Position numbers and translations under genes: made by a program
Notes under the pieces: model-generated
Seen by the model: only the letters and a program-made list of their open reading frames with translations
Database searches by the model: none
What the model was told of the DNA's origin: nothing
Shown: piece by piece, positions 38,493-61,713 of the stretch
How the letters are laid out: each line of letters begins with the position of its first letter
Position numbering within the stretch: position 1 is the first letter of the stretch
Assembly (NCBI GenBank): GCA_964412445.1
Contig: CAYPOR010000001.1
Location: forward strand, 15,586 to 79,585
DNA length: 64,000 nt
DNA from: an uncultured Nitrospira sp.
Lineage (GTDB): Bacteria > Nitrospirota > Nitrospiria > Nitrospirales > Nitrospiraceae
Reading direction: 5' to 3'

Positions 38493-38497
38493 AGTGA

Positions 38498-42569: not shown

Positions 42570-42774
42570 ATGATTTCCTCCACTCCTTTTCTACGACCCA
42601 CAATGCTTTTCAATGCGACTCAGCTTCTTCAAGGCAGAAAAAAACGCCTCCGCAAGGGGCCAACCCTTACAAAAGCGCTACTCTGCGTTCACCAGAACAA
42701 CCACAGCTTTGCGTGCCCCAACATGTCCAACCTTCGACTCCGGCGAGCTCACCCCATGCCCACGGAACAGCCGG

Positions 42775-43999: not shown

Positions 44000-45016
44000 T
44001 TACCGCGACGTGGGCAACAGTGTGAGCTTCGCAGTCCGGGCAAATCCGGCCACCGTGCCGAACGTGTCGCTGACCGCCGACGCCTCGTATCCGCAATGCA
44101 CCATGCATTCGGCGCACTTTTCATTTTTACTCGTGCCGTAGTCCTGCCATTCGGTGGCATCCATCAATTCCCGGAAGGTCTTCGCATAGCCTTCCTGCAG
44201 GAGGTAACAGGGCTTCTGCCAGCCGAACACGTTGTACGTCGGATTCCCCCAGGGCGTGCACTGATATTCTTTTTTTCCCATCAGAAAATCGAGGAAGAGC
44301 GGCGACTGATTGAACTTCCACCTTGCCTTCGGCCGACTCAGGATTTTCGAGAACAGGTCTCTCGTCTTCGCCTTCTTCAGGAAATGCTGCTGATCGGGAG
44401 CCTTCTGGTAGCTGTACCCCGGCGAGATCATCATGCCCTCGACGCCCAGATCCATCATCTCGTCGAAGAACTTTCTCACACGGTCCGGATTGGCGTCGTC
44501 GAACAGCGTGGTGTTCGTCGTGACCCGATGCCCGCGCTTCAACGCCTCCTTGATCGCCTTCACTGCAATCTCGTAGACCCCGTCCCGGCAGACCGCGAGG
44601 TCGTGCTCATTCTTCAGCCCGTCCATGTGGACACTGAAGGTCAGATACTTCGACGGTGTGAATTCCTTGAGTTTCCGCTCCAACAGAATGGCGTTCGTGC
44701 AGACGTACAGATAGCGTTTTTGCGCCACCAACCCGTCGACGATCCGCCCGATTTCCGGATGGATCAGGGGTTCGCCGCCGGGGATCGCCACAATGGGGGC
44801 GCCGCATTCCTCAGCCGCGGCCCAGCATTGCTCGGGCGTCAATCGCTTATCGAGAATGTGGTCGGGATATTGAATCTTCCCGCAGCCGGCGCAGGCCAGA
44901 TTGCAGCGAAAGAGCGGCTCCAGCATCAAGACCAGCGGATAGCGCTTGATTCCCCGGAGTTTCCGACTCAGCACATACGACGCAACTGTATACATTTGGG
45001 AAACCGGAACGGCCAT
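44000..45016 (-). CDS. hpnH: Adenosyl-hopene transferase HpnH (radical SAM)
   Basis: YPLVLMLEPLFRCNLACAGCGKIQYP, GGEPL, YLCTN-like VCTNA, CTPWGNPT..VFGWQKPCYLL, C..CMVHCGYE. Confidence 0.93.
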   Translation of the reverse strand: MAVPVSQMYTVASYVLSRKLRGIKRYPLVLMLEPLFRCNLACAGCGKIQYPDHILDKRLTPEQCWAAAEECGAPIVAIPGGEPLIHPEIGRIVDGLVAQKRYLYVCTNAILLERKLKEFTPSKYLTFSVHMDGLKNEHDLAVCRDGVYEIAVKAIKEALKRGHRVTTNTTLFDDANPDRVRKFFDEMMDLGVEGMMISPGYSYQKAPDQQHFLKKAKTRDLFSKILSRPKARWKFNQSPLFLDFLMGKKEYQCTPWGNPTYNVFGWQKPCYLLQEGYAKTFRELMDATEWQDYGTSKNEKCAECMVHCGYEASAVSDTFGTVAGFARTAKLTLLPTSR

Positions 45017-45426: not shown

Positions 45427-46608
45427 CTAGATGTTCGGAAGAACGGGAATCTCTTTGCCCAGCGTGGTCGATTGCGAGGGATCCGGCCCCAACGTCTCCC
45501 ATCCCTCGTGAGAAGAAGCAGCGACTTCCCCGTTTCCCTCGGCTTCTTTCTCTTTCGCGAGAATCTCGACCTCTTCGATCAGCGTATCCATCAGCTCTTC
45601 GATAGGAACTTTGCGGACGAGCTTGCCCTTCTTGAACAGAATGCCTTTGCCCTCGCCGCCGGCCACCCCGATGTCCGCTTCTTTTCCCTCGCCGATACCG
45701 TTGACGACACAACCGAGCACCGAGACATTGAGCGGCGTTTTGATATGGCCGAGTTTCTTTTCCAGCTCGTTCGCCATCTTCACGACATCGATCTCGACAC
45801 GCCCGCAGGTCGGGCAGGCAATCACATTGATTCCGCGATGGCGCAACTCCAGCGATTTCAAAATCTCAAAACCGACTTTTACTTCTTCGACAGGGTCCGC
45901 CGCGAGGGACACCCGCAGCGTGTCACCGATCCCCTGGGAGAGCAAGTAGCCGAGCCCCATCGCCGATTTGACGGCTCCGGTCATCGCCGTCCCGGCTTCG
46001 GTGATCCCGATATGGAGGGGATAATCGGACTGCATGGCAAAAAGATAGTACGCATCAATCGCATGATGCACATCGGAGGCTTTCAGCGACACCTTCATAT
46101 TGGTGAAGCCGACGTCTTCCAGCGCATGCACCGCATTCAGCGCGGACTCCGCCAGCGCTTCCGGCGAAGGCCATCCGTACTTGTCAAGGAGATGCCGTTC
46201 GAGCGATCCGCCGTTCACCCCGACCCGGATAGGCACGCCGTTGTCATTCACCGCCTTGATGACTTCTTCGACTTTCCACCAGGCGCCGATGTTCCCCGGG
46301 TTGATGCGCACACAATCCACGACTTTTGCGGCTTTGAGCGCGAGCCGGTGATCGAAGTGAATGTCTGCAATAAGCGGAACGGTCATCGCCGCCTTGATTT
46401 TCGGCAGGGCGGCAGCGGCCTCGTCGTCCGGCACCGCTACACGAATCACTTCACAACCCGCCGTCTCAAGCTGGCGGATTTGCTCAACCGTCGCAGTGAC
46501 ATCGCGTGTGTCGGTCGAACACATCGACTGGACAGAAACCGGAGCGTCCCCGCCGATTTTGAGAGAGCCGACTTTGATCTGCCGGGTTTTTCGTCTGGCG
46601 ATATGCAT
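45427..46608 (-). CDS. ispG: (E)-4-hydroxy-3-methylbut-2-enyl-diphosphate synthase IspG
   Basis: RRKTRQIKVG...GG.AP.SVQSM, ADIHF, RINPGNIG, PLHIGITEAG, IGDTLRVSL, CPTCGR, GCVVNG.GE. Confidence 0.95.
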   Translation of the reverse strand: MHIARRKTRQIKVGSLKIGGDAPVSVQSMCSTDTRDVTATVEQIRQLETAGCEVIRVAVPDDEAAAALPKIKAAMTVPLIADIHFDHRLALKAAKVVDCVRINPGNIGAWWKVEEVIKAVNDNGVPIRVGVNGGSLERHLLDKYGWPSPEALAESALNAVHALEDVGFTNMKVSLKASDVHHAIDAYYLFAMQSDYPLHIGITEAGTAMTGAVKSAMGLGYLLSQGIGDTLRVSLAADPVEEVKVGFEILKSLELRHRGINVIACPTCGRVEIDVVKMANELEKKLGHIKTPLNVSVLGCVVNGIGEGKEADIGVAGGEGKGILFKKGKLVRKVPIEELMDTLIEEVEILAKEKEAEGNGEVAASSHEGWETLGPDPSQSTTLGKEIPVLPNI

Positions 46609-46620: not shown

Positions 46621-48570
46621 CTAGCTCCCCTGCTCGTCTCCGTGCGGGAGATGATCCATTGAGGCGCCGACCGCAAATCTGTCGTGCTTCGTGACCGGAG
46701 CCTTCCCGACCAGCTCCTTGACGCTCTGATAAATGCCCTCGGCCGTCAGCCCGTAGCGCTCCCGCAAGAAATCCTGGGGGCCCTGCTCGATATACCAATC
46801 CGGCAGTCCCAGGACTTTCGTCGTCACGTCGGTAATGCGGGCATCGGACAGCGCCTCAAGGACGGCGGATCCGAATCCACCCATCTTGCAGCCTTCTTCG
46901 ACCGTCACCACATACCGCACCCGCTTCGCCACATCGACGATCAACTCCTGATCAAGCGGCTTGACGAATCGCGCATTCACCACGGCGGTTGAAATGCCCT
47001 CTTTGCTCAGCCGTTCCGCAGCCTGCATGGCCTGCCAGACCGACACGCCGATTGCGACGATCGCGACCTCTGATCCGTCCTTCATCAACTCGCCCTTGCC
47101 GACCGGAAGCGCCGCAGGCACGGCATCCATCTGGACACCAAGAGTCACTCCGCGCGGGTACCGGAGAGCGATGGGCCCGTCGTGTTGGATGCAGGTCTTC
47201 ATCATGTGCTGCAATTCATTTTCATCCTTCGGCGCCATCACCACCATGTTCGGAGCATGGCGCAGATAGGCGTAGTCGAAGGCTCCGTGGTGCGTCGTGC
47301 CGTCCTCGGCGACCAGCCCCCCGCGATCGAGACAAAAGACGACCGGGAGATTCTGCGTCGCCACGTCGTGCACCACCTGATCGTAGGCCCGCTGCAGGAA
47401 CGTCGAGTACATCGCGACAACCGGCTTAATGCCCTGTGTGGCAAGGCCTGCGGCAAACGTGACGGCATGCTGTTCCGCAATCCCCACATCATACAAACGA
47501 TCGGGGAATTCTTTTTCGAATCCGGTGAGACCGGTTCCTTCACACATCGCCGCCGTAATGGCAACGATCCGCTTATCCTCCCGGGCCAGCTTGACCAGGG
47601 AATCCATCGCGATTTGCGTATAGGAAGGACGGGCGGCTTTCTTCGCCGGCACGCCGGTCTCACGCACAAAGGGCGGACAGGCATGGAACCAGACTGGATT
47701 ATTGATAGCAGGCTCATACCCGAGCCCCTTCTTTGTAATCACGTGCAACAACACCGGGCCCTTCATCTTCAACACATTTTCAAGGGTCGGAAGCAAATGT
47801 TCAAAGTTATGACCATCAATCGGACCGCAATACTGGAAACCCAATTCTTCAAACAGCAGTCCCGGAAGAATCGCCCCTTTAGCAAGCTCCTCGGCCCGGC
47901 GAGCCAGCTTCTGCATATCGGCGCCGATATGGGGAATCTTCCGCAGAAGTTGGCCGGTTTCCTCCCGCATCTTCCCGTAGAATTCACCCGTGATCGTTCG
48001 GCTCAGATACGCGGAAATCGCGCCGACGTTCTTAGAGATCGACATTTGATTGTCGTTCAGGATCACCAGAAAATCCTTACCCAACCCGCCGGCATGATGC
48101 AACCCTTCCAGTGTCATCCCTGCCGTCATCGCGCCATCGCCGACTACACACACGACTTTATTCTTCTGCCCCAGTTGTTCTCGCGCTTCGACGAGCCCGA
48201 ACGCCGCCGAGACGCCGGTGCCGGCATGCCCAGCGTTGAACGAATCGTAGGCGCTTTCTTCTCTTTTGCAGAACCCGCTCAACCCGCCGTATTGACGCAA
48301 GGTATGGAACTGTTCACGGCGCCCTGTCAGCAATTTATGCGTGTAGGCCTGATTGCTGGTATCCCAGACGATCTTGTCGTCCGGTGTTTTCAGGAGATAG
48401 TGCAACGCCACCGTCAGCTCCACGACACCGAGATTCGAGGCCAGATGGCCGCCAACGCTCGAGACCGTGCTGATGATCTGCTCGCGGATTTCTTCGCACA
48501 GAGCCGGCAGCTGACTCGTCGGTACGCGCTTCAAATCAGCCGGGCTTTGAATTGTTTTTAAGATCGACAT
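46621..48570 (-). CDS. dxs: 1-deoxy-D-xylulose-5-phosphate synthase
   Basis: GGHLASNLGVVELT, HKLLTGR, AGHAGT, VGDGAMT.G, LNDN.MSIS.NVG, YCGPIDGH, DVGIAEQHAV, YSTFLQRAYDQ. Confidence 0.96.
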   Translation of the reverse strand: MSILKTIQSPADLKRVPTSQLPALCEEIREQIISTVSSVGGHLASNLGVVELTVALHYLLKTPDDKIVWDTSNQAYTHKLLTGRREQFHTLRQYGGLSGFCKREESAYDSFNAGHAGTGVSAAFGLVEAREQLGQKNKVVCVVGDGAMTAGMTLEGLHHAGGLGKDFLVILNDNQMSISKNVGAISAYLSRTITGEFYGKMREETGQLLRKIPHIGADMQKLARRAEELAKGAILPGLLFEELGFQYCGPIDGHNFEHLLPTLENVLKMKGPVLLHVITKKGLGYEPAINNPVWFHACPPFVRETGVPAKKAARPSYTQIAMDSLVKLAREDKRIVAITAAMCEGTGLTGFEKEFPDRLYDVGIAEQHAVTFAAGLATQGIKPVVAMYSTFLQRAYDQVVHDVATQNLPVVFCLDRGGLVAEDGTTHHGAFDYAYLRHAPNMVVMAPKDENELQHMMKTCIQHDGPIALRYPRGVTLGVQMDAVPAALPVGKGELMKDGSEVAIVAIGVSVWQAMQAAERLSKEGISTAVVNARFVKPLDQELIVDVAKRVRYVVTVEEGCKMGGFGSAVLEALSDARITDVTTKVLGLPDWYIEQGPQDFLRERYGLTAEGIYQSVKELVGKAPVTKHDRFAVGASMDHLPHGDEQGS

Positions 48571-48742
48571 AGGATGGTCTCCCTAAATTCGCCTTACTCT
48601 TGCCTAATTTCTGTTTGATTTCGTATCTACACTGGCCGGGGAAAACCGTGCCGCCGAAGATTGACAGATCCATACACTGTGTGCAGTTTCACATAGAGGT
48701 CATTTGGTGTCAAGAAGTTAGGTCCGGCAGTGACGTGCTGGC

Positions 48743-49768
48743 TCATGAGCCGAACTGAAACGTCACGACTGTGGACAGCGTAAAGTCGGCGGCACTCCCG
48801 ACGATGAAATCGAGATTTTCGACGGCGTACACCTGCCAGAGCAGTTGAGGACGCAGCCGATAACTAAAGCCGAGCACGCCTTCCGTCACGCCCTTATCGA
48901 ACACATGCGTGCCGGTCCCATACAGAGGCGATGAAAAGTAGTCGAAATGCCCCACGAGGGAGAAATCCTCCGACCAGAGGTACTCTACTGCAAAAACTCC
49001 TGATACGACAGGCTGCAGGCCGAATCCAGCGATTCGACCGGTCGGAATCACCCCGTTCAAATTCGCATAGACCATCCAGTCCTTGGCAATATGCTTTTCG
49101 ATGGCCAGCCCAAATCCGTAATCCGGGCTTCCGCTTCCCAAAAGGTGCGGCTCGTCTCCCGTCGGCAGTTTCAACGCGGCGCGAACAGACACCGCCGGCA
49201 GCGCATTCGTCTCGGTCAATACCTGGTACTTCCCCATCACGGAAGCATCGCCCAATCCTACGGCACCCTCCCGTGCGTTGATCACCGTTCTTCCGCCCGA
49301 TGTCACCTGGTACGCGTACCCGGTGCCTTGTAAGGCCCTTCGATCAGGCGCTAACCCGGTCGTGGCCCGTTCAACGGCCGTGATCATGCCTTCCATAATG
49401 CCCCGATACCGGTTCAGCACCGGAACTTCCACAGCCATTTCCAGCCGCTCGGTCACCCCGTACCGGAGGAAGATGCCCGACCGAATGCTTTCAAACTTCA
49501 TCGCGACGGACGCTTGAGGAGTGGAATCGGAAAAGACGTTGGCCGTATTGGCGAGCTCAACGCGCAGATCGAGCGCGCCGGGCTTCAACACCGCGGCGCG
49601 ATCACCGGGCATCCCGAGCACCAGTTGATGAAGCGGCTGGAAGTTTCTGACCGGGAACGGCCCGAACCCTTCGGCGCTTCCAAGCTGGGGATTCGCCCCT
49701 CCGGCCAACACGATGCTCACGAAAAGGAGGGCGAATAGCATCTGGCCCCGCGACATCCGACAACTCAC
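48743..49768 (-). CDS. DUF3187-like exported protein, probable outer-membrane beta barrel
   Basis: Signal peptide, GPFPVRN.QP, GLGD...GKY, LKLPTG...LGSG..D, alternating beta-strand pattern, C-terminal TFQF. 1-nt overlap with the upstream gene. Confidence 0.7.
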   Translation of the reverse strand: MSCRMSRGQMLFALLFVSIVLAGGANPQLGSAEGFGPFPVRNFQPLHQLVLGMPGDRAAVLKPGALDLRVELANTANVFSDSTPQASVAMKFESIRSGIFLRYGVTERLEMAVEVPVLNRYRGIMEGMITAVERATTGLAPDRRALQGTGYAYQVTSGGRTVINAREGAVGLGDASVMGKYQVLTETNALPAVSVRAALKLPTGDEPHLLGSGSPDYGFGLAIEKHIAKDWMVYANLNGVIPTGRIAGFGLQPVVSGVFAVEYLWSEDFSLVGHFDYFSSPLYGTGTHVFDKGVTEGVLGFSYRLRPQLLWQVYAVENLDFIVGSAADFTLSTVVTFQFGS

Positions 49769-50970
49769 TAGTAGGGGAAATCGAGACCGGCGAAAATGGC
49801 GCCGCCCTCGCGACTGAATCCGTAATCGAGACGACCCACCACATTCGGCCGTACAATGCCACGGATGCCGAGGCCCGGAGTCATCCGGTAATCTTTGACG
49901 CTGACGTCTTTGAAATTGCCGAACACTTGCCCCGTATCAAGGAACGGAGCCAATTCAAAATCCGCCATGACCCCGGCCAGCCTGGTGCGGGCGATATGGA
50001 TCCGCTCTTCAATACTCACGGCCAGCAAGTGTTTGTCGATATACCGGTCGACGCCGAATCCGCGCAAATTATTCTGGCCGCCCAGTGAACTCTGCTCGAA
50101 AAACGGAACCTGCGTGCCGATCGTGGCCTGCAGATTCGCCCGCACGACAAGAATGGCCCGCTTCGACTCGCTCGGGAAGAGCTTCTTGACCTCGAGTTCA
50201 TATCGCGAATAGACCGGGTGCTCGCTATTCCGGACATTCTGATTCAACTCCGCATAGGCGGTGATCGCCATGCCGTCAGTCGGCGTCACGAGATTATTGC
50301 GGGTGTCATAGTGAAAACTGATGCGATGCCCGACAATCATCGACTGCCCGTTGACCCCGTCGACATCCCCGAACCGCTCGCCGGTAAACGGAAGGTTGGT
50401 CGCGCCGCGCTGCAGCTGGACGTCACGAACGCGCTGCGCCAGCGCAATCTGCGTCACTTCGTTCGCGTACACGCCAAAGCGCCAGTTCGCCCGTATTTCC
50501 CGTGCCGTGTAATTGGTTTCATTGCCTTCCAAGGAGTCCTGTCCGGGGCCGAAGAACCGGGACGTGGCGTTCTTGAAAAACGATCCGCCGAACTGGAGGA
50601 AATACCGCCCGTTGCTGAAGGCGGGATCCAGATAGTTAAACACCAGCTTGCGCTCGATCTTCTCCGTAAACGAACCGATGAATTGAATTTGCCGCCCGCC
50701 CGGTTCGTATTGAAAGAAATTGAACGCGCCTCTGGTTCCGACGATCGAATTCCGAATCACCATCGGCGCCATCAGGTATTTCAGCTCTCCGTCAGGATCC
50801 GTCACCAGAATCGGCATGATCAGTCCGACGTCGTTGCCGTCGTTGCGCGTCGTCGAGACCGACGGAACGGGAATGACCTGCGTGTCGGCCCAGGCGGAAG
50901 AAAGACACACCCCTCCGCTCCCTGCCCACAGGCACACGATGGAAATAGCGAGTCGACGCAGGGAGGACAT
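49768..50970 (-). CDS. Omp85/BamA-TamA superfamily outer-membrane protein lacking POTRA domains
   Basis: Signal peptide, YDTR.N...PT.G, LGG.NNLRGF..DRY (loop-6 xRGF motif), FLD.GQV, terminal aromatic residue (DFPY). Confidence 0.8.
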   Translation of the reverse strand: MSSLRRLAISIVCLWAGSGGVCLSSAWADTQVIPVPSVSTTRNDGNDVGLIMPILVTDPDGELKYLMAPMVIRNSIVGTRGAFNFFQYEPGGRQIQFIGSFTEKIERKLVFNYLDPAFSNGRYFLQFGGSFFKNATSRFFGPGQDSLEGNETNYTAREIRANWRFGVYANEVTQIALAQRVRDVQLQRGATNLPFTGERFGDVDGVNGQSMIVGHRISFHYDTRNNLVTPTDGMAITAYAELNQNVRNSEHPVYSRYELEVKKLFPSESKRAILVVRANLQATIGTQVPFFEQSSLGGQNNLRGFGVDRYIDKHLLAVSIEERIHIARTRLAGVMADFELAPFLDTGQVFGNFKDVSVKDYRMTPGLGIRGIVRPNVVGRLDYGFSREGGAIFAGLDFPY

Positions 50971-50990
50971 GAACAGGCGCCTGAATGGTC

Positions 50991-51674
50991 TTACGGAGAC
51001 TTGAGCTTATCGGATTTTTTCCGGAGTTGATCGACGAGATCGGGGTAGGAGGACGCGCGGAGGATCTTCGTAAATTGCCCGCGGTAATTGTTGACCAGAC
51101 TCACCCCATCGACTACCACATCATACACCCGCCAGTCGGTGCCGTGATTGATGAGTCGATAGTCGAGCGGAATTTCCGTTTTTCCGGAAAGGATCTTGGT
51201 CCGCACCTCGGCATAATCTTTTTCAGTCCGTTCATTCAAGTACTGGACGCCCTCGCCGGAATAGGACTCCACTTTTTCCGCATAGGAATTGGTCAAGAGC
51301 GTTTGAAACAACGACACGAATTCCTGCTTCTCTTTGTCCGAGAGCTGATTCCACGGAGCTCCGAGCGCGCGGCGCGACATCTCCTGATAATCGAACCGCT
51401 CGGCCACCACCTTTTCCAGCAACGATCGCCGCTCTTCGGCTTTGGCCGTCTGCTTCAGTTCCTTATCGCGAATGATGCGAAGCACTTCGTCGATCGTACC
51501 CTTCATCGAATCGGTCGGAGGGCCGGCGAACGCCGGCGTGAATCCGAGCCCGAAAAACAAGCAGATCCCCATGATACCGACGACGGCCATTCGGCCGATC
51601 TGCGCTGGCAGCGATTTACCTTGCCGCAATATCAATATATTGTTCGTCACCATGCAAGACTCCTGTGTATTCAC
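50991..51674 (-). CDS. mlaC: MlaC/Ttg2D (HpnM-like) periplasmic lipid-shuttle protein
   Basis: FDY.EMSR.ALG..W, F..LF..LL..SY, P.DYRL, WRVYDVVVDGVSLV.NYR.QF. Start codon uncertain. Confidence 0.85.
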   Translation of the reverse strand: MNTQESCMVTNNILILRQGKSLPAQIGRMAVVGIMGICLFFGLGFTPAFAGPPTDSMKGTIDEVLRIIRDKELKQTAKAEERRSLLEKVVAERFDYQEMSRRALGAPWNQLSDKEKQEFVSLFQTLLTNSYAEKVESYSGEGVQYLNERTEKDYAEVRTKILSGKTEIPLDYRLINHGTDWRVYDVVVDGVSLVNNYRGQFTKILRASSYPDLVDQLRKKSDKLKSP

Positions 51675-51710
51675 ATCCTGCGATGCAATCCCCGGGGGGA
51701 GATCGATGGA

Positions 51711-52160
51711 TCAGTTGACTTTACCATGAACGTATTGGCTCACCAACTCTTCGAGGTCCAAGCCGGACTCGGTATCGCGAATGGTGTCTCCCGACTTCAA
51801 CAGGTCGCCGCCGCCGCCAGGAGACAGCGTCAGAAACTTTTCTCCGATAATCCCTCTCGTTTTGATCGATGCAATCGTATCCGTATAGAGCTTCACGCCG
51901 TTGCCGACGGCGAGCGTGACGATCGCGCGATCCTCTTTGAGGGCGATCCCCCTCACACGCCCCACCTCCACGCCGGCGATTTCGATCGCGGCTCCCGATT
52001 TCAGACCGGTCGCGGTATTGAAGAGCGCGGTCACTTCATACAGATCGCCGCCGATCACCTCCAGCTTCCCCAGCTTGATGGAGAGATAGCCCAGACACAG
52101 AATCCCGACCAGGACAAACGCACCGACCGCCAGTTCAAGCTTGGTATTTTCCATCGCCAT
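51711..52160 (-). CDS. mlaD: MlaD single-MCE-domain protein
   Basis: E..VG.FVL, F....GLK.GA.I.IAGV.VG.V, ASIKT.GIIGEKFL.LSPGG, LEELV.QYV. Confidence 0.9.
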   Translation of the reverse strand: MAMENTKLELAVGAFVLVGILCLGYLSIKLGKLEVIGGDLYEVTALFNTATGLKSGAAIEIAGVEVGRVRGIALKEDRAIVTLAVGNGVKLYTDTIASIKTRGIIGEKFLTLSPGGGGDLLKSGDTIRDTESGLDLEELVSQYVHGKVN

Positions 52161-52167
52161 ACTCCCG

Positions 52168-52926
52168 TTACGAACCCGCAGCCGCGCCGGACAGCACGAC
52201 CGGCCCGCCGACTGAAATAAATTCCTGAATCTCCGGATCTGTCGTTCGGATAAACTCAGCAGGCGGAGCCATCACCGCGATCCGTCCCTGTTTCAGGATA
52301 CCGACGTAGTCCGACAGGCCGAAAATCTCCGGAATTTCATGGCTGACCATGACCGCCGTAAATCCGAATGTCCGTTGCGTCGCCGTGATCAGCTCATGAA
52401 TGGCTTTCGCCATCAACGGATCCAGCCCCGTGGTCGGCTCATCGAACAGAACGATCTCGGGCCGCATCACCAGGGCGCGGGCCAGACCGGCACGCTTGCG
52501 CATCCCGCCGCTGAGCTCCGCCGGGAACTTATGCCCCATGCCGGCCAACCCGACCTGCTCGAGCATCTCGTCTACTCTCGCCGCCGCCTCCGGCCCTTTC
52601 ATTCGCAGCTTTTCTTTCAGCGGGAAGGCGACGTTCTCGAACACGGACATCGAGTCGAACAGCGCCGCCCCCTGAAACAACATCGCAAACCGCTTCCGCA
52701 CTTCATTCAGCGGCTGCCCGCGCAGGCGCGAGATATCGACGTCGCCGACCCAGACCTGCCCTTCATCCGGCTGAAGCAGCCCGATCATGTGCTTCAACAG
52801 CACACTCTTGCCTTCTCCGCTGCGCCCGATGATGGTCGTCAATTTTCCGGCCGGAATCGTCAGGTCGACTCCACGCAGCACGGGCTGAGTCCCCAGCGTT
52901 TTTTTCACTCCGACAAGCTTGAGCAT
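52168..52926 (-). CDS. mlaF: MlaF ABC transporter ATPase
   Basis: GRSGEGKS, MLFQGAALFDSM, ELSGGMRKRAGLARAL, LFDEPTTGLDP, VSH. Start MLKLVG at 52926. Confidence 0.9.
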   Translation of the reverse strand: MLKLVGVKKTLGTQPVLRGVDLTIPAGKLTTIIGRSGEGKSVLLKHMIGLLQPDEGQVWVGDVDISRLRGQPLNEVRKRFAMLFQGAALFDSMSVFENVAFPLKEKLRMKGPEAAARVDEMLEQVGLAGMGHKFPAELSGGMRKRAGLARALVMRPEIVLFDEPTTGLDPLMAKAIHELITATQRTFGFTAVMVSHEIPEIFGLSDYVGILKQGRIAVMAPPAEFIRTTDPEIQEFISVGGPVVLSGAAAGS

Positions 52927-52928
52927 AC

Positions 52929-53696
52929 TTACAGCAAGACCGACGTCAGAAAATAATCCCACACCAGGATCACCACCGAAGACAGCACCACCGCCTCCGT
53001 CGTGGCCGAGCCCAGGCCTTCGGCACTCATGCGCGTATAGAACCCTTTGTAGCAGCAGACCCAGCTGATGATCAGCCCGAAGCTGATCGATTTCAGAATC
53101 CCGCCGTAGATATCCTTCCACTCCACGGCCGACTCGATCGACGTCCAGTAGGATCCGGCATTGACGCCGAGCAGGTCCACACCGACCAGATAGCCGCCGT
53201 AAATCCCGACAACGTCAAAGAGCGCCACCAGCAACGGCACCCCGATCAAGCCCCCCACCACTTTCGGCGCAATAAGATACTGATGCGGATTGATGGCCAT
53301 AGTGTCGAGCGCGTCGATTTGCTCCGTAATCCGCATGATGCCGATTTCCGCGGTCATCGCCGAACCGGCCCGCGCCGTCACCATCAGCGCCGCCAGAACC
53401 GGCCCCAGTTCGCGAATCATACTCAAGGCGACCGCCGACCCGAGCAACCCTTCGGAGCCGAACTTCCGCAAGGTGTAATAGCCCTGAAGCGCGAGCACCA
53501 TGCCGGTGAATCCGGCCGTCAACACGACGACGAATGTGGATTTATACCCGATGAAATGCAGCTGTTTCACGAACTGAATGAACCGGAACGGCGGGCGCAC
53601 GAGCCATCCGAACGACGACAAAAGGAAAATGAGCATCCGGCCCATTTCCCGGACATACGTCAGCGCCACCCGCCCGATCGACGCGAGCATTGTCAT
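52929..53696 (-). CDS. mlaE: MlaE ABC transporter permease
   Basis: FTGMVLALQ, IRELGPVLAALMV.ARAGSA..AEIG.M...EQIDAL..MA..P, GLGSATT.AVV. ATGA overlap with the hpnG stop. Confidence 0.92.
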   Translation of the reverse strand: MTMLASIGRVALTYVREMGRMLIFLLSSFGWLVRPPFRFIQFVKQLHFIGYKSTFVVVLTAGFTGMVLALQGYYTLRKFGSEGLLGSAVALSMIRELGPVLAALMVTARAGSAMTAEIGIMRITEQIDALDTMAINPHQYLIAPKVVGGLIGVPLLVALFDVVGIYGGYLVGVDLLGVNAGSYWTSIESAVEWKDIYGGILKSISFGLIISWVCCYKGFYTRMSAEGLGSATTEAVVLSSVVILVWDYFLTSVLL

Positions 53697-54538
53697 GATG
53701 TCATCGCCATGGGTGAACCCGGCCTGACTGCGAAGCGGGTCTCGGCTGCGGCCCGCAGACACATTGTGAGCGACTCGGCGGCTCGTGCACTTTGCCGCCG
53801 CAACCGGGCGAGTCCCAGTACACTCGACGGATGCGCGAGCAACGCCCCTAGGCCTTTCAGCCATCCAGTGGGCCTGAGAAAGAGATTGAAGTCAAGAGGC
53901 AGTTCTTCCATCACGAGATCCGATACCGCGCGCACGATTAAGAATGGCACGCCGGCGGACCGGGCTTCGTTCGCCAGCGCGGCGCTCTCCATATCCAGCC
54001 CCGCAGCATGCGTGCGCTGAGCCAACGCCGTCTTTTCCGCAGCCCGCCACACAATGCGATCTAAGGAGATAAAGTCACCGCGGCTCGCAACACTATTGGT
54101 CAGGTTCACGTCAAGGGCGGCACACCAGCGGTCACGCTCCTGCCCCTCGACTTCCATGTAATCGAGCGCCGCCGTCGGCTCGGCCGAAACCGCCGCAACT
54201 CTGGTTCCGATCAAAATATCCCCGACGCTCGCCTGCCGCAATGCGCAGGCATACCCGCTCGAAATCGCCAGCGCGAACGACTGCTGCGCGAAAACCGCCT
54301 TCGCTGCTTCACGGGCCTTCTGCGGACCCACCCCCGTCTGAATCACCCAGCACTCGCCGGCGCCTGTTCGAACACGATACCGTGATCGCCCGTGCACCGT
54401 GTCGCTTTCTCCGCCGGGCAATGCAGCTCGCACGGCGGACGACTCCCAGATCGTAGCCACGAAAATTGCGATACCGGCAGGGGGTGAGGAAACGGAAGGC
54501 GTGGGCGGCCGCGTCGTCACAACGTGCGCGTCCGTCAA
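53693..54538 (-). CDS. hpnG: Hopanoid-associated nucleoside phosphorylase HpnG-like
   Basis: PNP/MTAN fold motifs TGVGP..A, SSGYACAL...GD, GLDMESAALA, F.IVRAVSD. Directly after shc. Confidence 0.75.
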   Translation of the reverse strand: MTDAHVVTTRPPTPSVSSPPAGIAIFVATIWESSAVRAALPGGESDTVHGRSRYRVRTGAGECWVIQTGVGPQKAREAAKAVFAQQSFALAISSGYACALRQASVGDILIGTRVAAVSAEPTAALDYMEVEGQERDRWCAALDVNLTNSVASRGDFISLDRIVWRAAEKTALAQRTHAAGLDMESAALANEARSAGVPFLIVRAVSDLVMEELPLDFNLFLRPTGWLKGLGALLAHPSSVLGLARLRRQSARAAESLTMCLRAAAETRFAVRPGSPMAMTS

Positions 54539-56709
54539 TGATCAAACCGATAGCATCCGGATGACTCCACATGCTCTCGAAGCTCTTCGGCCCGCATACG
54601 TCCCCGTGACCGGAGGTTGCGATACATCGCAAGCGCCCACAGCGGGAAGTATTGACAGTACCAATGGTAGCGGAGGTAGAACACGCGCGGGAACCCCGTG
54701 CCGGTATGCATCACCTCTTCCCAGGAGCCGTCCTTCAGCTGATGGCGGAGGAGAAACTGCACACCGCGCGCAATGCTCAGCGAATCCGTCATGCCCGCGG
54801 ACATCAACGCCATCAGCGCCCAGGCTGTTTGCGACGGTGTGCTCTGGCCTTTCCCGCTATGGGCTTCTTCCGCATACGAAAGACAGGCCTCACCCCAGCC
54901 GCCATCGGGATTCTGCTTGGATTCAAGCCAGGATACCGCCCGGCGAATATAGGGAGAGGACACCTCCTCTCCAATCGCCCTCAGTCCTGCGAGCACCGAC
55001 CAGGTTCCGTAAATGTAGTTCACACCCCACCGGCCGTACCAGCTGCCGTCAGCCTCCTGCTGTCTCTTGAGAAACGCCAGCGCCGGCTGCGCCGCGGGAT
55101 GGGAACGGTCATAGCCCAACGCGCCCAGCATTTCCAAACAGCGCCCGGCCAGATCGGCCGTACTCGGATCGAGCAGGGCTTTATGGTCCGCGAACGGAAT
55201 ATAATTGAACACGACCCGGTTGTTATCCTTGTCGTACGCGCCCCAGCCGCCGTCCGAACTCTGCATGGCCAGCACCCACTGCATGCCGCGGCGAATCGAT
55301 TCCCGCAAATCAGCCGGCTCGGGCATCTTGAGTTTCGACAGCGCCATCAGCACGACGGCGGAATCGTCCACGTCGGGGTACAATTCATTTTCAAACTGGA
55401 AATACCATCCGCCCGGCTCCGCCTGTGGAGACGACACCGTCCAATCGCCGACCGTGTTCGTCTGCCGGGAGAGCAGATAGGCGCCGGCTTTGACCAGCGC
55501 CGGATGATCCTGCGGCATGCCGGCTTCGATCAACGCGTTCATCAGCAAGGCCGTGTCCCAGATCGGAGAATGACAGGGTTGCAAATGCAGCGTCGGCAGC
55601 CGTTGGCCGTCTATCGTCACGGACTCATGCACTTCCAGATCTTCGATTTCCCGGAGCGCTTTCTGAACCAGCGGATCGTCCATCTCATAGCCCAGGCACC
55701 GGAGCGCTAGGACCGAGTTGGCCATCGCCGGATAAATCGCGCCCAGCCCGCCGCTGCCCTTCAAGTGATCCAGCATCCAGGTCGCCGCTTTATGCATCGC
55801 CTTCTCACGCAGCCACAGCAACGGCATCCGGTCATACAGCTTCAGCACCGCATCGAGCATGACGAAGAAATTATGCGGGGTGAACCAGGCTTGATCCTTG
55901 TTGAACGGCGGATATTTCCAGTACGGGACCTTCCCTCGCGGCTCAAGATACAGTTCCTCGATCCCCTGCTCGCGGGGAATCCGGCACACCGGTTGATGCG
56001 CAAAGACAATCAGCAGCGGAATCAGCACGGCTCTCGACCAGTAGGAGATCGCGTAGATGCTGAAATAGAACCGCTTCGGCAACAGCATGAGCTCGACCGG
56101 CATGTGGGGCACGCCTTCCCAGTCATACTGGTCGAACAAGGCCAGTGCAATCTTCGTAAAGACGTTCGCCTGCACGACTCCGCCCATCGCCAGGATGCGC
56201 TCGCGCGCACGCACCAGACAGGGATCGGAGGCGGGGATCCCGCTGAGCTTCAGCGCGAAGTACGCCTTCACCGACGCGCTGATTTCCGCCGGCCCGCCGT
56301 AGTAAATCGGCCAGCCGCCGTCCGGCAGCTGCATCGTTCTCAAATACCGGACCGCTTTGTCTTCCTTGACCGGATCGACACAATCGAGAAACCGCCGCAG
56401 CATCAGATACTCGGAGGTCAGCGTCGTGTCGGCCTCGAGTTCCGCCACCCAATAGCCCTCGGTGGGATGTTGCTTGGATAAAAACCAGCTTTGACTGCGG
56501 CGGATGGCATCATCAATGGCATCCGGCTGGCTCACGGTATGAGCCGACGGCCGACGAGCGGCATCTGCCGCCGTCAAGGGGCCGACTTTATCCGAGACAA
56601 GCCGGAGCGGGGGCGTTTGCGCATACTCGATGGCCGGATTGAATTTTCCGGGAATCGTCGCGAGCAAACTGCTGGAAAGCCGGTCAAACAGTGCGCGAAA
56701 GAGTTTCAT
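54535..56709 (-). CDS. shc: Squalene-hopene cyclase
   Basis: GYW.AELEAD, QLPDGGW, SPIWDT, GGWYFQF.N..YPDVDDSA (DxDD), repeated QxxxGxW motifs, TGFP.VFYL.Y..Y..YFPL.AL. Confidence 0.95.
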   Translation of the reverse strand: MKLFRALFDRLSSSLLATIPGKFNPAIEYAQTPPLRLVSDKVGPLTAADAARRPSAHTVSQPDAIDDAIRRSQSWFLSKQHPTEGYWVAELEADTTLTSEYLMLRRFLDCVDPVKEDKAVRYLRTMQLPDGGWPIYYGGPAEISASVKAYFALKLSGIPASDPCLVRARERILAMGGVVQANVFTKIALALFDQYDWEGVPHMPVELMLLPKRFYFSIYAISYWSRAVLIPLLIVFAHQPVCRIPREQGIEELYLEPRGKVPYWKYPPFNKDQAWFTPHNFFVMLDAVLKLYDRMPLLWLREKAMHKAATWMLDHLKGSGGLGAIYPAMANSVLALRCLGYEMDDPLVQKALREIEDLEVHESVTIDGQRLPTLHLQPCHSPIWDTALLMNALIEAGMPQDHPALVKAGAYLLSRQTNTVGDWTVSSPQAEPGGWYFQFENELYPDVDDSAVVLMALSKLKMPEPADLRESIRRGMQWVLAMQSSDGGWGAYDKDNNRVVFNYIPFADHKALLDPSTADLAGRCLEMLGALGYDRSHPAAQPALAFLKRQQEADGSWYGRWGVNYIYGTWSVLAGLRAIGEEVSSPYIRRAVSWLESKQNPDGGWGEACLSYAEEAHSGKGQSTPSQTAWALMALMSAGMTDSLSIARGVQFLLRHQLKDGSWEEVMHTGTGFPRVFYLRYHWYCQYFPLWALAMYRNLRSRGRMRAEELREHVESSGCYRFDH

Positions 56710-56815
56710 GGATTCCTAGTGAGTGCATGCAGATGGGAGTAAAGAGACGCGACTGCGTGCCGCCAGTCATCGAATCGCCGGCACCTTGCCACACAAGAGC
56801 AGCCCATCCGTGGGG

Positions 56816-56844
56816 GATATAACAGACACCCCTACCTGAGTCAA
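56816..56844 (-). promoter_or_regulatory. Sigma70 promoter of the shc operon
   Basis: TTGACT-N17-TATATC with TG extension, about 105 nt upstream of shc. Confidence 0.5.
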
Positions 56845-56893: not shown

Positions 56894-59800
56894 TCATACG
56901 GGCTGCAGATCCCCCAGCCGCACCGAGACCAGCTTGGACACACCCGGCTGTTCCATCGTCACACCGAACAACGAATCGGCGATCGCCATCGTGCGCTTGT
57001 TATGGGTAATGACGAGAAACTGCGCATTCTTCGACATCTCCCGAAGGACACTGGTAAAGCGCCCGATATTTTCTTCATCGAGCGGAGCGTCGATTTCATC
57101 CAGCAGACAGAACGGCGTCGGCCGGATCAAGAAACTGGCAAACAGTAGCGCCATTGCCGTTAACGTCTTTTCTCCACCGGACAGCATCGTGATGCTCTTC
57201 AATCGCTTGCCCGGAGGCTGCGCCACGATGTCCACGCCCGGCTCTTGATTGCCGGCGCTCTCCCCGTTTTCACCGGCCGGCTCATCGACCAGCAGTAACT
57301 CAGCACGCCCGCCGGGGAAAAACTGGCTGAAGACTTCGGTGAATTTCTGCTGCAATTCGGCGAAGGTCGTGACGAACATATCCTTCGTGGTCTTGTTGAT
57401 CCGCTGAATAATTTCCTTGAGGGAGCTGATCGAGGTCGCAAGATCCTGTTCCTGCGTCGTCAGAAAGGTATAGCGCTGCTCAAGCTCCTGATGCTCGCTG
57501 ATCGCCGCCAGATTGATGGGCCCCATCCGGTCAAGCCGGTCCCGCAGCTTTTGGAGTTGCTCTTTCAATTCAGCCTGCGGCACCTGCGCCAACGGATTGG
57601 CACTGGCCTGGGCCGCACCTTCGACGCTCGCATCTGCGGCAGGCTCGGAGCCCGGCGCCGCGCCATCCGCCAGCGCGACCGGATCCAGCTGATACGTTCC
57701 CGACAAGGTGCTCTCGACGGCGCTCAATTGCGTCCGCAGCTCAGCCCGACGGACTTCCACCGCCATCCGTGCATCCCGCACGGACGACATGTCCCGACGC
57801 ACGGCATCCAGGCTAGCCTCTAATGACTGTCCGACCGCCATCTCCTGAGTCTGTTGTTCCTGGGCGGCAATCAATTGCGCTTTAATCTTGGCCGCAGCCT
57901 CGCCGAATTCCTGGCACAACGCTTCCTGGCGGGTGCGCTCTTCATGGCTATGCTGAATATCGCGCGCCAATCCCTCCAGATGACTCTGCAACATCTGCCG
58001 GCGCTGCTCGCTTTCCACCTGCTGCTGCCTGATGCGAAGGCGATTCGCCTGTTCATGCCCTTGTTTGGCGCGCAGCCCTTCGGACAGCAGCCGCGCTTCC
58101 GTCACCCGCTCTTGAAACAGCCGGCCCTCCAAATCGATCGCCGTGAGCCGTTCCCGCACGCGGCCCAGGCTCGCTTCCTGTCCGGTCTTCTCGCTGACCC
58201 ATTGCTCCAACTGGGCCTGCGCCGAACGTGCGTCCTGCTCGAACCGCTGCCGATCCACCATTCCTTTTTGTATTTCGGCGGCAATCCCGCCGAGACGGAC
58301 ATCCAGATCCGCCATAAACTGACGGAGATTTTCTTCGTCCTTCCGTAACGACAGATCCTGCATTTCCGTGTCGCGCAACGACTCGGCCAACTGTCGACTC
58401 TGCAGCCCCAGGCCTTGCCCCCGATCCTGCAAGGCAAGACGCCGTTGCTTATCGGATTCGAGCGCCGCGGTCAGTTCGTCGCGTTTCGTCTCCAGACCGA
58501 CCACCTCACGCCGGCGTTCCAGCAGCCCCTGCCCCGCATGAGCATGTCCTCCGCTGATGACGCCGGATGCGTCCATGACTTCACCGGCCAGCGTCACCAG
58601 CACCGGCCCGTCGGGCCCCGTCCACAGCCGGCGCTCCCACAGTCGCACCGCATGGTCCAGCGATTCCACGATCACGATGCGATCGAACAGGCAGTCTTTC
58701 GCCGCCGTGCGGGCGTCATCCGCACGGATCAAATCGACGGCCCGGCCGACGACACCGGCCTGATCCGCAAGTACGTTCCACCAGGCCCGTGCGTCGGCTC
58801 CGGACAGTTCCCATCGCGGCTGTTGAGGAATAAACGTTCCGCGCCCGAGTTCTTTTTCTCGAAGAAAACCGATCGCACGTTGCGCCACGGCCGGCTCATC
58901 GACAAACCACCCGTGTACGCGCTCCCCCAGAACCGCTTCCACGGCCCGATCCATGCCGGGAGGAATCACGAGCCATTCGGCAATCGCATCACGAACCCCT
59001 TCGCAGGATTTGAGCGCCGTGCTTTCATCCTGCCCTTCCCGCCCGTACCCCATCTCTTCACGCACGACGCCCTGCAGCGCCTGCAGCCGGGAATCGACGG
59101 CAGCCAATTCCTCCGATCGTTGCAGAATCAGCCGGTCGAGTTCCTGCTGCTCAACCGCAACCTGCGCCGCATCGGCCTGCACGGTCTCCTGCTGAGCCCG
59201 AATGGCGGCCACCATACGCCCCGCCTCGCCGTACTCATGCCGCAGGGCTTCATGCCGGGTCAGCGCCGTCGACCGGTGCGCCTCCAACTCCTCTTGTTCA
59301 GCCGCCAGCCGGGTCCCCCGCTCAGCGACTTCGCCCATCCGGGCAATCAGCTGCGTCACGCTCTGCTCGGTATTCGCCACCAGAACGGCCAGCTGCATGA
59401 TGTCGAGACGCCCGCGCTCCTCCTCCGCGACCGCAGCGGCCCGCTGATGCAGCAGGCGCTCCATATCCTGATCGAGCTCCGCAAACGCCTGTTCGCGGGA
59501 AAGCAACTCCTCTTCCAGCGAGACGAGCGCCGCTTCGATGGCCTCCAGCGAATGCGCCAGCTCCTCCTGGGCATGCGCCAGCCCTTCCAGCTCATGCGAC
59601 TCTTGCTGCTGCTGCTGTTCGAATAACTGGCTCCGGTTCCGCTCGACCTCGGCCGCCGTCAACGCCTGGGCCTGCTGATGTTCGATCCGCCCGAGTTCCT
59701 CGCGGATCTTGCCGGTCGACTCGCCGATTTCGATCGCCCGCAAACGGGACTGCTCCAGATCCGTGGCAAACCGCGCCTGTCCGGCGGCTTTTTCGGATTC

Positions 59801-60595
59801 TTGCTGGTCGAGGCTCAGCACCTCCGCTTCGACCTCCTTCAAACCGGCCCGTAACGTCACAAACTCCCTGGTCAGCAATTCGATCTCGACGGCCCGGGCT
59901 TCCTGCTGCAGCGTCTGATACGTACGCGCCTGCCGCGCCTGCCGTTCAAGCGAATTAAGCTGCTTTTTGACTTCCGCGATGATGTCACGCACCCGCAGGA
60001 TATTTTGCTGAGTGGCATCGAGTTTCCGGAGGGCTTCAGCCTTTTGCTTTTTGTACCGGACGATCCCGGCCGTCTCTTCGATCAATTCACGCCGGTCTTG
60101 CGGAGAGGCATTCAGGATCTGATCGATCTGTCCCTGCGCAATGACCGTATGCCCCTTGCTGCCGGCGCGCGTGTCCATGAGCAGCGTCCGGATATCTTTG
60201 AGCCGGCAGGCCGTCTTGTTGATAAGATATTCACTGTCGCCGTTCCGGTAGAGCCGCCGCGTGATCATGAGCTCCTGAAACTCGGTCAACTCGCTCGGCA
60301 ACCCCGATCCACCTTCCTGCGGCAACACCGCACGATCGAGCCCGCCGATGATGAGCGAAACCTCCGCCATACCGAGCGGCTTGCGCAATTCAGTGCCGTT
60401 GAAGATCACATCTTCCATTTTTTCGCTGCGCAACGTCTTGGTGCTCTGCTCGCCCAGCACCCACAGAATGGCATCGACCACGTTGCTTTTGCCGCTGCCG
60501 TTGGGGCCGACGATGGCCGTCACTCCTTGTGGAAACTCGATTCTCGATTCGGCAAACGACTTGAACCCCAGCATATCGAGCGATTTCAAATACAT
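56894..60595 (-). CDS. smc: Chromosome segregation protein SMC
   Basis: [15 protein letters not shown], long coiled coils flanking a hinge (GRGTFIP), LSGGEK signature, [14 protein letters not shown]. Confidence 0.95.
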
Positions 60596-60750: not shown

Positions 60751-61713
60751 TTATCTGGCGACGCCGGCAGCGGACTTTCCAGCCGAATCGATTTGCACGA
60801 GTTCTTTGGGCAGGAGAAATTCGACGTCCTCCTCGATCACGGTCAGCTCTTCCACCTCTGAAGGACCAGAACTCCTGAGAAAGGCGACCACCTCCGTCAC
60901 GAGAACTTCCGGAGCCGACGCGCCGGCGGCGATGCCGACCGCCTTCGCGGCTTTCAACCAGTCCGGATTGATGTCACTGGCCGAATCGATCAGGTAGGAG
61001 GGAATTCCGCACTGCTCGCCCAACTCGCGCAGGCGGTTGGAATTCGAGCTGTTCGGCGACCCGATGACCAGAATCACATCCACCAGGCGGGAGAGCTCCT
61101 TCACCGCATTCTGCCGGTTTTGCGTGGCATAGCAGATGTCTTCCTGGTGCGGGCCCTTGATATTCGGGAACCGCTTATTGAGTGCGGCGACAATATCCCG
61201 GCATTCATCCACGCTGAGCGTCGTTTGCGTCACATAGGAAAGGTTTCGCGTATTGTCGACATGGAGTTTCTCGACATCATCGACCGAGGACACCAGGTGG
61301 AACTTATCGGGAATCTGTCCCAGCGTCCCGATGACCTCGGGATGCCCGGCATGGCCGATCAGAATCAGCTCATAGCCCTGAGTGTATTCACGATTCACTT
61401 CGTTGTGGACCTTGATGACCAGCGGACAGGTGGCATCGATCACGTGCAGCCGGCGCTGATTCGCCTCGGCCCACACCGACTTGGCCACGCCATGCGCGCT
61501 GAAAATTACCACCGAGCCTTCCGGCACTTCACTCAACTCTTCCACAAACACGGCGCCCTTTTGACGAAGCGAGTTCACTACATGGCGGCTATGGACGATT
61601 TCATGGCGGACATAAATGGGGGCGCCGTACTTCTTGAGCGACAGATCCACGATATCGATCGCCCGATCGACCCCGGCACAGAATCCCCGCGGATTGGCAA
61701 GGTATATCTTCAT
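60751..61713 (-). CDS. ispH: 4-hydroxy-3-methylbut-2-enyl diphosphate reductase IspH
   Basis: [57 protein letters not shown]. Confidence 0.95.

Follow-up and report, generated by a model that had tools for sequence, protein, structure and literature searches.

A hopanoid operon of Nitrospira that carries Mla-type transporter genes and a POTRA-less Omp85-family barrel: a candidate route of hopanoid trafficking

In a 64,000-nucleotide stretch of DNA from an uncultured Nitrospira sp. (contig CAYPOR010000001.1, positions 15,586 to 79,585; hereafter, the window), a minus-strand operon joins the squalene-hopene cyclase gene shc to genes for an Mla-type lipid transporter and for an outer-membrane barrel of the Omp85 family that lacks POTRA domains. 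We analyzed this operon computationally, and every result below comes from the comparison of sequences, profiles, predicted structures, or literature. Our interpretation, to which we give about an even chance of being correct, is that in lineage II Nitrospira, to which the source of the window is assigned, the operon couples hopanoid synthesis to a lipid-trafficking module of the cell envelope, with the barrel as its outer-membrane station. This interpretation rests on gene content, packing, promoter footprints, conservation, the fold and motifs of the barrel, and genomic association.

In the proposed route, Shc, HpnH, and HpnG would produce hopanoids at the inner membrane, where MlaFED, an ATP-binding cassette (ABC)/MCE complex, would exchange them with a soluble MlaC-like carrier in the periplasm. 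The carrier would then dock at the POTRA-less Omp85-family barrel, which would receive the hopanoids or insert them into the outer membrane, so that this barrel, and not an MlaA-porin complex, would be the outer-membrane station. A second barrel of the hydrophobic-substrate type, the DUF3187 protein, would be an optional, lineage-specific accessory channel. The hopanoid cargo, the interaction of carrier and barrel, the net flow from the inner to the outer membrane, and the replacement of MlaA-OmpC by the barrel are what we infer from the observations described below.

Gene content, organization, and conservation of the operon

Profile searches identified eight open reading frames (ORFs) on the minus strand from 56709 to 48743, namely shc, an hpnG-like gene, mlaE, an mlaF-like gene, mlaD, an mlaC-like gene, omp85, and a DUF3187 gene. 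These are the eight genes that an initial annotation had named, and our family assignments agree with it. The first gene, shc (54535-56709), encodes a 724-amino-acid (aa) squalene-hopene cyclase that scored 781 bits on TIGR01507 (cutoff 431) and also matched PF13243 and PF13249. It is followed by a gene for an HpnG-like nucleosidase/phosphorylase of the PNP_UDP_1 family (53693-54538; PF01048, 58 bits). Although HpnG (TIGR03468) was the best NCBIfam match of this protein, its score of 105 bits failed the cutoff of 187. The genes at the same position in four distant loci described below (L081, L082, L124, and L126) gave 105-117 bits on the same model, likewise under the cutoff, and the HpnG-like proteins look like a divergent, non-proteobacterial HpnG clade.

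Four genes of the Mla type follow. The mlaE gene (52929-53696) encodes an ABC permease of 255 aa from an ATG at 53696 (PF02405, 280 bits; TIGR00056, 269 bits, cutoff 212), and the mlaF-like gene (52168-52926) encodes a 252-aa ABC ATPase (PF00005, 118 bits) whose best NCBIfam match, MlaF PRK11831, reached 197 bits against a cutoff of 441. The mlaD gene (51711-52160), whose ATG is preceded by GGGAG, encodes a 149-aa protein with an N-terminal membrane anchor and a single MCE domain (PF02470, 69 bits) that is borderline on TIGR04430 (134.7 bits, cutoff 135). The mlaC-like gene (50991-51653) encodes a predicted periplasmic lipid carrier of 220 aa. With these matches MlaE and MlaD belong to the Mla families, as does the MlaC-like protein by PF05494 (174 bits) and its signal peptide.

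The mlaC-like gene is sited in a hopanoid locus, in the same operon as shc and four genes after it. Its product scored 33 bits on the enterobacterial MlaC equivalog PRK15117, and its closest PDB sequences are MlaC/Ttg2D-type proteins. The initial annotation had brought up a likeness between HpnM and MlaC, and HpnM (TIGR03481) was indeed the top match at 105 bits; however, this likeness turned out not to be discriminating. On the same region of 145-176 residues, the HpnM model gave 101 bits for the window protein, 68 for E. coli MlaC, 50 for Ttg2D, and 64, 80, and 69 for the other solved MlaC-type proteins 2qgu, 8dte, and 11hy, respectively, and the window protein and all of these controls failed the cutoff of 160. 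The orthologues in L081 and L083 scored 90 and 85 bits. Because the controls also score on the model, the resemblance of the MlaC-like protein to HpnM is weak, and we dropped the top match (101-105 bits, against 50-80 for phospholipid MlaC/Ttg2D) as evidence for the identity of the carrier.

The eight genes are tightly packed. With plausible start codons assumed, neighbors overlap by up to 4 bp or lie up to 57 bp apart. Overlaps of 4 bp (ATGA/TTGA) occur at shc/hpnG and hpnG/mlaE, the latter being an ATGA that lays the stop of the hpnG-like gene over the start of mlaE. The gaps are 2 bp at mlaE/mlaF, 7 bp at mlaF/mlaD, 36 or 57 bp at mlaD/mlaC, by choice of start codon, and 20 bp at mlaC/omp85, while the omp85/DUF3187 junction lies between a 1-bp overlap and a 26-bp gap. 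Overlaps or gaps of 50 bp or less, as initially described, are therefore found at all junctions except perhaps mlaD/mlaC, which may slightly exceed this length. The operon holds no mlaB gene and no room for another gene. The absence of mlaA/vacJ, mlaB, and hpnN from the window, also reported initially, was confirmed for ORFs of at least 150 aa, none of which carries an MlaA (PF04333), STAS/MlaB, or RND/HpnN domain; shorter ORFs outside the operon, in the size range of MlaB, were not scanned.

A putative promoter lies upstream of shc at 56816-56844 on the minus strand, where TTGACT and TATATC are separated by a 17-nt spacer and a TG stands two bases upstream of the latter (an extended -10). A simple consensus scan called no promoter before shc. 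In an alignment of the spacer between smc and shc from 16 Nitrospira sequences, which represent different sublineages and include N. moscoviensis and N. defluvii, the TTGACT-TATATC element was the sole conserved block. The single promoter that the initial annotation had placed at the 56844 end of the operon thus coincides with a conserved footprint that the consensus scan missed. The 172-bp spacer upstream of dxs, the gene that follows the operon, carries a second promoter-like block, TTGACA ... TGTGAAACT (48685-48713, minus strand), which is conserved in the same 16 sequences. Because this block is separate, the operon appears to end after the DUF3187 gene.

These footprints strongly suggest, and RNA weakly suggests, that the eight genes from shc through DUF3187 form a single unit and that dxs-ispG has a promoter of its own. 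Contigs of a biofilter metatranscriptome cover shc, mlaE/F/D, and omp85 at a depth of 2-11 and dxs at about 40; in these contigs, dxs is thus about 5-10 times deeper than the operon. One contig of 687 nt spans the mlaF-mlaD junction. These RNA data are thin, as they consist of assembled contigs of one metatranscriptome from a relative of 90-95% similarity, with DNA carry-over possible.

We then compared the locus across genomes by tblastn with the window proteins. A scan of a genome collection was saturated by Nitrospiraceae; the best 80 of its 443 hits, all of them species-level loci from this family, were used. The order smc-shc-hpnG-mlaE-F-D-C-omp85-(DUF3187)-dxs-ispG was found in every locus that was long enough. 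Identities to the window proteins within the family were 81-99% for MlaE, 75-97% for MlaD, 61-95% for MlaC, 72-96% for the barrel, 55-93% for DUF3187, and 38-83% for the HpnG-like protein. The barrel of the window shares 96% identity with its counterpart in Nitrospira sp. CG24D and 92% with the one in N. lenta, and the window sequence is present in drinking-water biofilter metagenomes. Furthermore, the same gene order occurs in two distant loci, L081 and L140, whose barrels are just 42-43% identical to that of the window. Split matches to mlaF, mlaD, and ispG in some metagenome contigs suggest frameshifts or assembly errors.

The neighborhood of the operon, all on the minus strand, also carries MEP and hopanoid genes. 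Upstream of smc lies ispH/lytB (60751-61713; PF02401, 329 bits) of the MEP (methylerythritol phosphate) pathway. Downstream are two further genes of this pathway, dxs (46621-48570; TIGR00204, 832 bits) and ispG/gcpE (45427-46608; PF04551, 495 bits), and then hpnH (44000-45016), which encodes the adenosyl-hopene transferase of extended hopanoids (TIGR03470, 541 bits, cutoff 225; Radical_SAM and DUF3463 domains). The locus thus passes the equivalog models of both squalene-hopene cyclase and HpnH. As hopanoid and MEP genes stand on both flanks, the transporter and barrel genes are sandwiched in a hopanoid/MEP supercluster (ispH, smc, operon, dxs, ispG, hpnH); the initial annotation was correct about the operon but understated this context, leaving out ispH upstream and dxs, ispG, and hpnH downstream. 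The smc gene (56894-60595, minus strand) is wedged between ispH and the shc operon in all Nitrospiraceae loci; gene order in this family can thus be kept where no functional link is evident.

The Omp85-like barrel, its genomic associations, and the DUF3187 protein

The omp85 gene (49768-50970, minus strand) encodes a 400-aa protein with a signal peptide, a short conserved N-terminal beta-meander, and a 16-stranded barrel of the Omp85 family (PF01103, 58 bits). It scored only 39 bits on BamA TIGR03303 (cutoff 297), and no POTRA match was found in it with Pfam. An AlphaFold2 model built from a diverse alignment had a predicted local distance difference test score (pLDDT) of 86 and a predicted template modeling score (pTM) of 0.80; a first model from a Nitrospira-only alignment (pLDDT 57) was discarded. 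In the model, 16 strands span residues 63-397, strands 11 and 12 are joined by a long loop, and the place of POTRA domains is taken by four short strands (residues 29-57), only about 30 residues in all, that precede the barrel. Foldseek searches with it returned the barrels of BamA, TamA, and Sam50 (E values of 1e-10 to 1e-12, 11-16% identity), the best matches being those of BamA and TamA with E values of about 1e-12.

The signature motifs of the superfamily are also present. Among 42-47 diverse homologues, L302, R303, G304, and G306 of the loop-6 (L6) motif LRGFG (residues 302-306) are invariant, as are F343 and G347 of the beta-13 motif FxDxG, and D345 is nearly so; the positions of both motifs agree with L6 and beta-13 of the AlphaFold2 model. 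An exhaustive search of 50%-identity representatives gave 123 clusters at E<1e-30, nearly all of 380-500 aa and aligning over residues 25-400, and the homologues are therefore a defined barrel-only family. The POTRA-less Omp85 barrel recognized in the initial annotation is thus supported by PF01103, by the modeled fold, by the motifs, and by the lack of a POTRA match, and on this modeling the protein is a true member of the Omp85 superfamily that is not BamA, TamA, or TpsB.

To follow the barrel outside Nitrospiraceae, we used context look-ups and one metagenome scan, screened by tblastn and hidden Markov models. This sample contained 31 places whose barrel shares no more than 45% identity with that of the window; five were too short to show neighbors, leaving 26 informative places. 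In 16 of these 26, the barrel gene adjoins hopanoid or MEP genes, and although the 16 places are not independent samples, they fall into five different arrangements. Arrangement A, shc-hpnG-mlaEFDC-omp85-(DUF3187)-dxs-ispG, is that of L081 and L140. Arrangement B, (hpnA-CarotSynth-hpnH-)shc-hpnG-omp85-dxs, was found in L082 and L126. Arrangement C, CarotSynth-hpnH-hpnG-omp85-hpnA-hpnC/D with a divergent shc, was found in nine places (L088, L089, L092, L093, L094, L110, L124, L154, and L155), where HpnA scored 458 bits (cutoff 368). In arrangement D (L132 and L172), the order is redoxin-omp85-ispH-hpnJ-x-hpnI, with scores of 729 and 724 bits for HpnJ (cutoff 578) and 365 for HpnI (cutoff 310). 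Arrangement E, found in L083, has the order MMPL/HAE3 resistance-nodulation-division (RND) protein-mlaC-like-omp85-dxs-ispG.

In a 4-Mb genome with one shc, a randomly chosen gene should fall within 10 kb of it in about 0.5% of cases, so the linkage of the barrel to hopanoid genes is not attributable to chance. In a crude neighbor-joining tree of the barrels, arrangements A, B, D, and E fall in one superclade and arrangement C in another. In L083, the RND gene stands directly before the mlaC-like and barrel genes, where MlaFED sits in Nitrospira. Such a substitution would be expected if the pathway were modular, with an engine in the inner membrane, a carrier in the periplasm, and a barrel in the outer membrane as its parts. 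The L083 RND protein ends at the contig end and scored 95 bits against the HpnN cutoff of 752; we call it HpnN-like in the sense of the MMPL/HAE3 class, with HpnN among its best matches.

The remaining ten informative places are not linked to hopanoid or MEP genes. In seven of them (L084, L086, L167-L169, L173, and the P0455 place; arrangement F), the genes next to the barrel encode an HpnL-like protein (TIGR03476, 185 bits, cutoff 196), an ArnT/PMT-type glycosyltransferase, or both. These barrels form a different clade of the Omp85-like family, in which an HpnL-like flippase-type protein and an ArnT/PMT_2-type glycosyltransferase stand on the flanks (for example, L084 5510-9768), and arrangement F may be a separate module for envelope-lipid modification. 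The other three (L085, L170, and L171) have no lipid-related neighbor.

Arrangement D matches the genes listed, without comment and with an Omp85 protein among them, for the hopanoid cluster of Leptospirillum ferriphilum (PMC12654047). Our literature search found no paper that discusses the barrel, nor useful work on Mla in Nitrospira or on PDB 8DTE/11HY. We considered the "ug1" gene beside hpnG/hpnA in Acidobacteria (PMC5462960) as a further barrel and rejected it, because according to the supplement it encodes a Zn-dependent alcohol dehydrogenase. Two other features of these loci are recorded here. In L132, a 253-aa TPR protein is encoded between hpnJ and hpnI (4888-5649); its BstC match of 37 bits (cutoff 350) may reflect just the TPR repeats. 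A Caroten_synth membrane protein (PF04240, CruF-like) is encoded before hpnH in the barrel-carrying hopanoid loci L093, L094 (1656-2615), L124, and L082.

The last gene of the operon (48743-49756 or 49768, minus strand, by choice of start) encodes an outer-membrane protein of 337-341 aa with a signal peptide and a DUF3187 domain (PF11383, 91.6 bits, threshold 24). It has weak profile matches to Phenol_MetA_deg (PF13557, 24.5 bits) and to FapF (E value of 0.007) and is probably a plugged barrel for hydrophobic substrates, related at this level to COG4313/Phenol_MetA_deg channels and FapF, although DUF3187 is a separate Pfam family with no characterized member. The initial annotation had made this protein a second outer-membrane terminus beside the Omp85 barrel. 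However, its slot is empty in about 15 Nitrospira species; in N. moscoviensis (L043), dxs follows the barrel gene by about 200 bp. Outside Nitrospiraceae, it is missing from every barrel arrangement except that of L081. The protein is thus dispensable for the role of the operon, and we rejected it as a general co-terminus; judged by this distribution, it is a variable accessory, and we consider it unlikely to belong to the outer-membrane terminus at all. Some Nitrospiraceae loci (L028, 11200-12574; L130; L148) have an extra insert of about 1.4 kb between the barrel gene and dxs that is not DUF3187.

Assessment of the proposed route

As most hopanoid-linked barrels outside Nitrospirales have no mla gene next to them, the link of Mla to hopanoids is narrower than that of the barrel. 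We consider it likely that the barrel is functionally tied to hopanoids, whereas a dedication of the Mla module to hopanoids would have a slightly less than even chance. A functional tie of the Mla genes is favored by their predicted translational coupling to hpnG, by their retention in the distant loci L081 and L140, and by the HpnN-like RND protein that takes the position of MlaFED before the carrier-barrel pair in L083. We also considered, more tentatively, a wider role for the POTRA-less Omp85 subfamily as a conserved hopanoid receptor/insertase of diderm outer membranes, which would work with interchangeable engines (MlaFED or an HpnN-like RND protein) and an MlaC-type carrier; this is possible but rather doubtful.

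Several points weigh against the proposed route. Most hopanoid-linked barrels (arrangements B, C, and D) have no adjoining carrier or inner-membrane transporter, and Mla genes join the hopanoid locus in Nitrospirales-type loci only. Seven barrel homologues keep company with an HpnL-like protein and/or a glycosyltransferase, three have no lipid context, and DUF3187 is missing in about 15 species, N. moscoviensis among them. The resemblance of the carrier to HpnM is weak, and synteny within one family can persist without functional coupling, as smc is kept in the same block. The operon may also be a general phospholipid system if it is the sole mla locus of the genome. Finally, E. coli Mla is generally held to be retrograde, so that export is not the default expectation.

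Many of these points would fit a housekeeping MlaFEDC phospholipid system without MlaB that became fixed in an envelope/isoprenoid supercluster, with the barrels as general outer-membrane proteins. The absence of MlaB is common outside Proteobacteria, and MlaE, MlaD, and MlaC match generic Mla families, with an HpnM score that does not discriminate. In addition, smc, which is unrelated to lipids, is equally conserved in the block, and most non-Nitrospirales hopanoid loci with the barrel are without Mla genes. We nevertheless regard this explanation as unlikely, because the hpnG stop and the mlaE start share an ATGA and a conserved promoter of the operon's own precedes shc; moreover, L081 and L140 retain the block although their barrels share only 42-43% identity with that of the window, L083 places an HpnN-like RND protein in the MlaFED position beside the same carrier-barrel pair, and a general outer-membrane protein would hardly be expected to be linked to hopanoid genes in five arrangements.

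Two further explanations accept the link to hopanoids and differ from the proposed route in direction or in the task of the barrel. The same components might retrieve hopanoids from the outer to the inner membrane, or balance them, instead of exporting them. Sequence fixes no direction, the main assignment of E. coli Mla is to retrograde transport, and the short MlaD of 149 aa calls for a shuttle carrier in either direction. Newly made hopanoids must, however, get to the outer membrane, and Nitrospirota are without a reported HpnN (PMC12324291); the partner in L083 is HpnN-like, and characterized HpnN exports (as cited in PMC12324291). We consider retrieval improbable for these reasons, and we give equally low credence to a barrel that is linked to hopanoids yet is no transport terminus, but inserts or stabilizes a hopanoid-dependent protein or lipoprotein or handles a modified glycolipid, its adjacency to Mla being secondary. 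BamA, TamA, and Sam50, its characterized close structural relatives, all handle proteins, the barrel keeps the L6 lid-lock motifs that insertases typically have, and the seven homologues of arrangement F stand beside HpnL-like and/or PMT_2/ArnT-like proteins. On the other hand, the barrel is without a POTRA domain to take in protein substrates, no candidate protein substrate is conserved alongside it, and in arrangements A and E its gene comes directly after that of the lipid carrier. We retain the coupling of hopanoid synthesis to lipid trafficking, with the barrel as the outer-membrane station, as our working interpretation.

Further features of the window, related systems, and significance

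Elsewhere, the window contains a complete Pup-proteasome cluster (997-7624, minus strand) with two Pup-ligase family genes (997-2481 and 4362-5999), proteasome alpha and beta genes (2483-4073), and a gene for an Mpa/ARC-type AAA ATPase (5897-7624). At 31205-43320 (minus strand), a run of cytochrome c genes, together with genes for two homologues of cytochrome bd-like oxidase subunit I (34460-36325 and 40290-41993), a Rieske protein, and cytochrome b, forms a respiratory set that fits Nitrospira. Other genes encode a VIT-VWA protein followed by a sortase-domain protein (25286-27960, plus strand), which is unusual for a diderm; a 1256-aa fusion of a GT2 glycosyltransferase and DMFA2_C (15704-19474, plus strand); and a 679-aa caspase-domain (Peptidase_C14) protein (28182-30221, minus strand). 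An ORF of 1051 aa at 7771-10926 (plus strand), which has no Pfam match and overlaps several minus-strand ORFs, is probably a spurious long ORF of high-GC DNA.

The proposed route shares parts with several known systems. Like the E. coli MlaFEDB-MlaC-MlaA/OmpC-OmpF system, the Nitrospira operon encodes, in the order E-F-D-C, a permease, an MlaF-like ATPase, an MlaD with one MCE domain, and a soluble carrier of the MlaC type. It differs in having no MlaB (STAS) and no MlaA in the window, in the predicted co-transcription of the mla genes with shc and hpnG and the presumed hopanoid cargo, and in the Omp85-type barrel that follows the mla genes, which in E. coli are unlinked to an outer-membrane component. 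TamA, which with TamB is the nearest precedent for an Omp85 protein in lipid traffic, anchors this AsmA-like lipid transporter through three POTRA domains that bind TamB. The two systems have in common an Omp85-family barrel as the outer-membrane partner of a lipid machine, and TamA barrels are among the best structural matches of the Nitrospira barrel, but the latter is without POTRA domains and has no AsmA-like gene nearby. The classification of Heinz and Lithgow (2014) reportedly includes a POTRA-less "noNterm" class of the Omp85/TpsB superfamily, for which we know of no assigned function. Our barrel resembles this class in being a barrel-only Omp85 protein that is about 400 aa long and has both the L6 and the beta-13 motif; what sets the Nitrospira barrel subfamily apart is its specific genomic association with hopanoid genes.

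BstA, BstB, and BstC are sterol transport proteins of Methylococcus, and NCBIfam has a BstC model. They follow the same logic, in that genes beside the biosynthetic ones encode a transporter of the inner membrane, a binder in the periplasm, and a protein associated with the outer membrane, which move a polycyclic triterpenoid lipid, but the protein families differ, and the weak BstC match of the L132 TPR protein is the sole sequence trace. For hopanoids themselves, an HpnN-HpnM-HpnS route with MlaC-like and MlaA-like components has been proposed for Proteobacteria (Lawrence, Pan, Ollikainen, and Belin; bioRxiv 10.1101/2025.07.29.667474, PMC12324291), also formulated in this Belin-laboratory preprint as HpnN-HpnM-HpnS/HpnT; its text makes no mention of Omp85, MlaD/E, or Nitrospira loci. 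Both routes have an MlaC-family carrier in a hopanoid locus and are analogous to Mla, and L083 pairs an HpnN-like RND protein with the carrier. In Nitrospira, a member of the phylum Nitrospirota, the engine would be an ABC/MCE complex and not an RND pump, and the outer-membrane candidate is an Omp85 barrel and not an MlaA-like lipoprotein.

Hopanoids are enriched in bacterial outer membranes, and Nitrospira are key nitrite oxidizers and proposed sources of sedimentary hopanes, so that their hopanoid cell biology is relevant to geobiologists. HpnN, the only characterized hopanoid transporter, is common only in Pseudomonadota and Desulfobacterota (PMC12324291), and other diderm hopanoid producers are thus without a known route. 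For these, the operon offers an outer-membrane candidate and a putative HpnN-independent route. The locus names three candidates that can be purified, the MlaFED complex, the MlaC-like carrier, and the Omp85-like barrel, and the recurrence of the barrel in hopanoid loci of several lineages makes the hypothesis one of family level. If it is true, this would be the first function for a barrel-only Omp85 protein and the second case, after TamA, of an Omp85 protein in lipid traffic; it would give the Omp85 superfamily a new lipid-handling role and supply the missing route of hopanoid export for phyla without HpnN.

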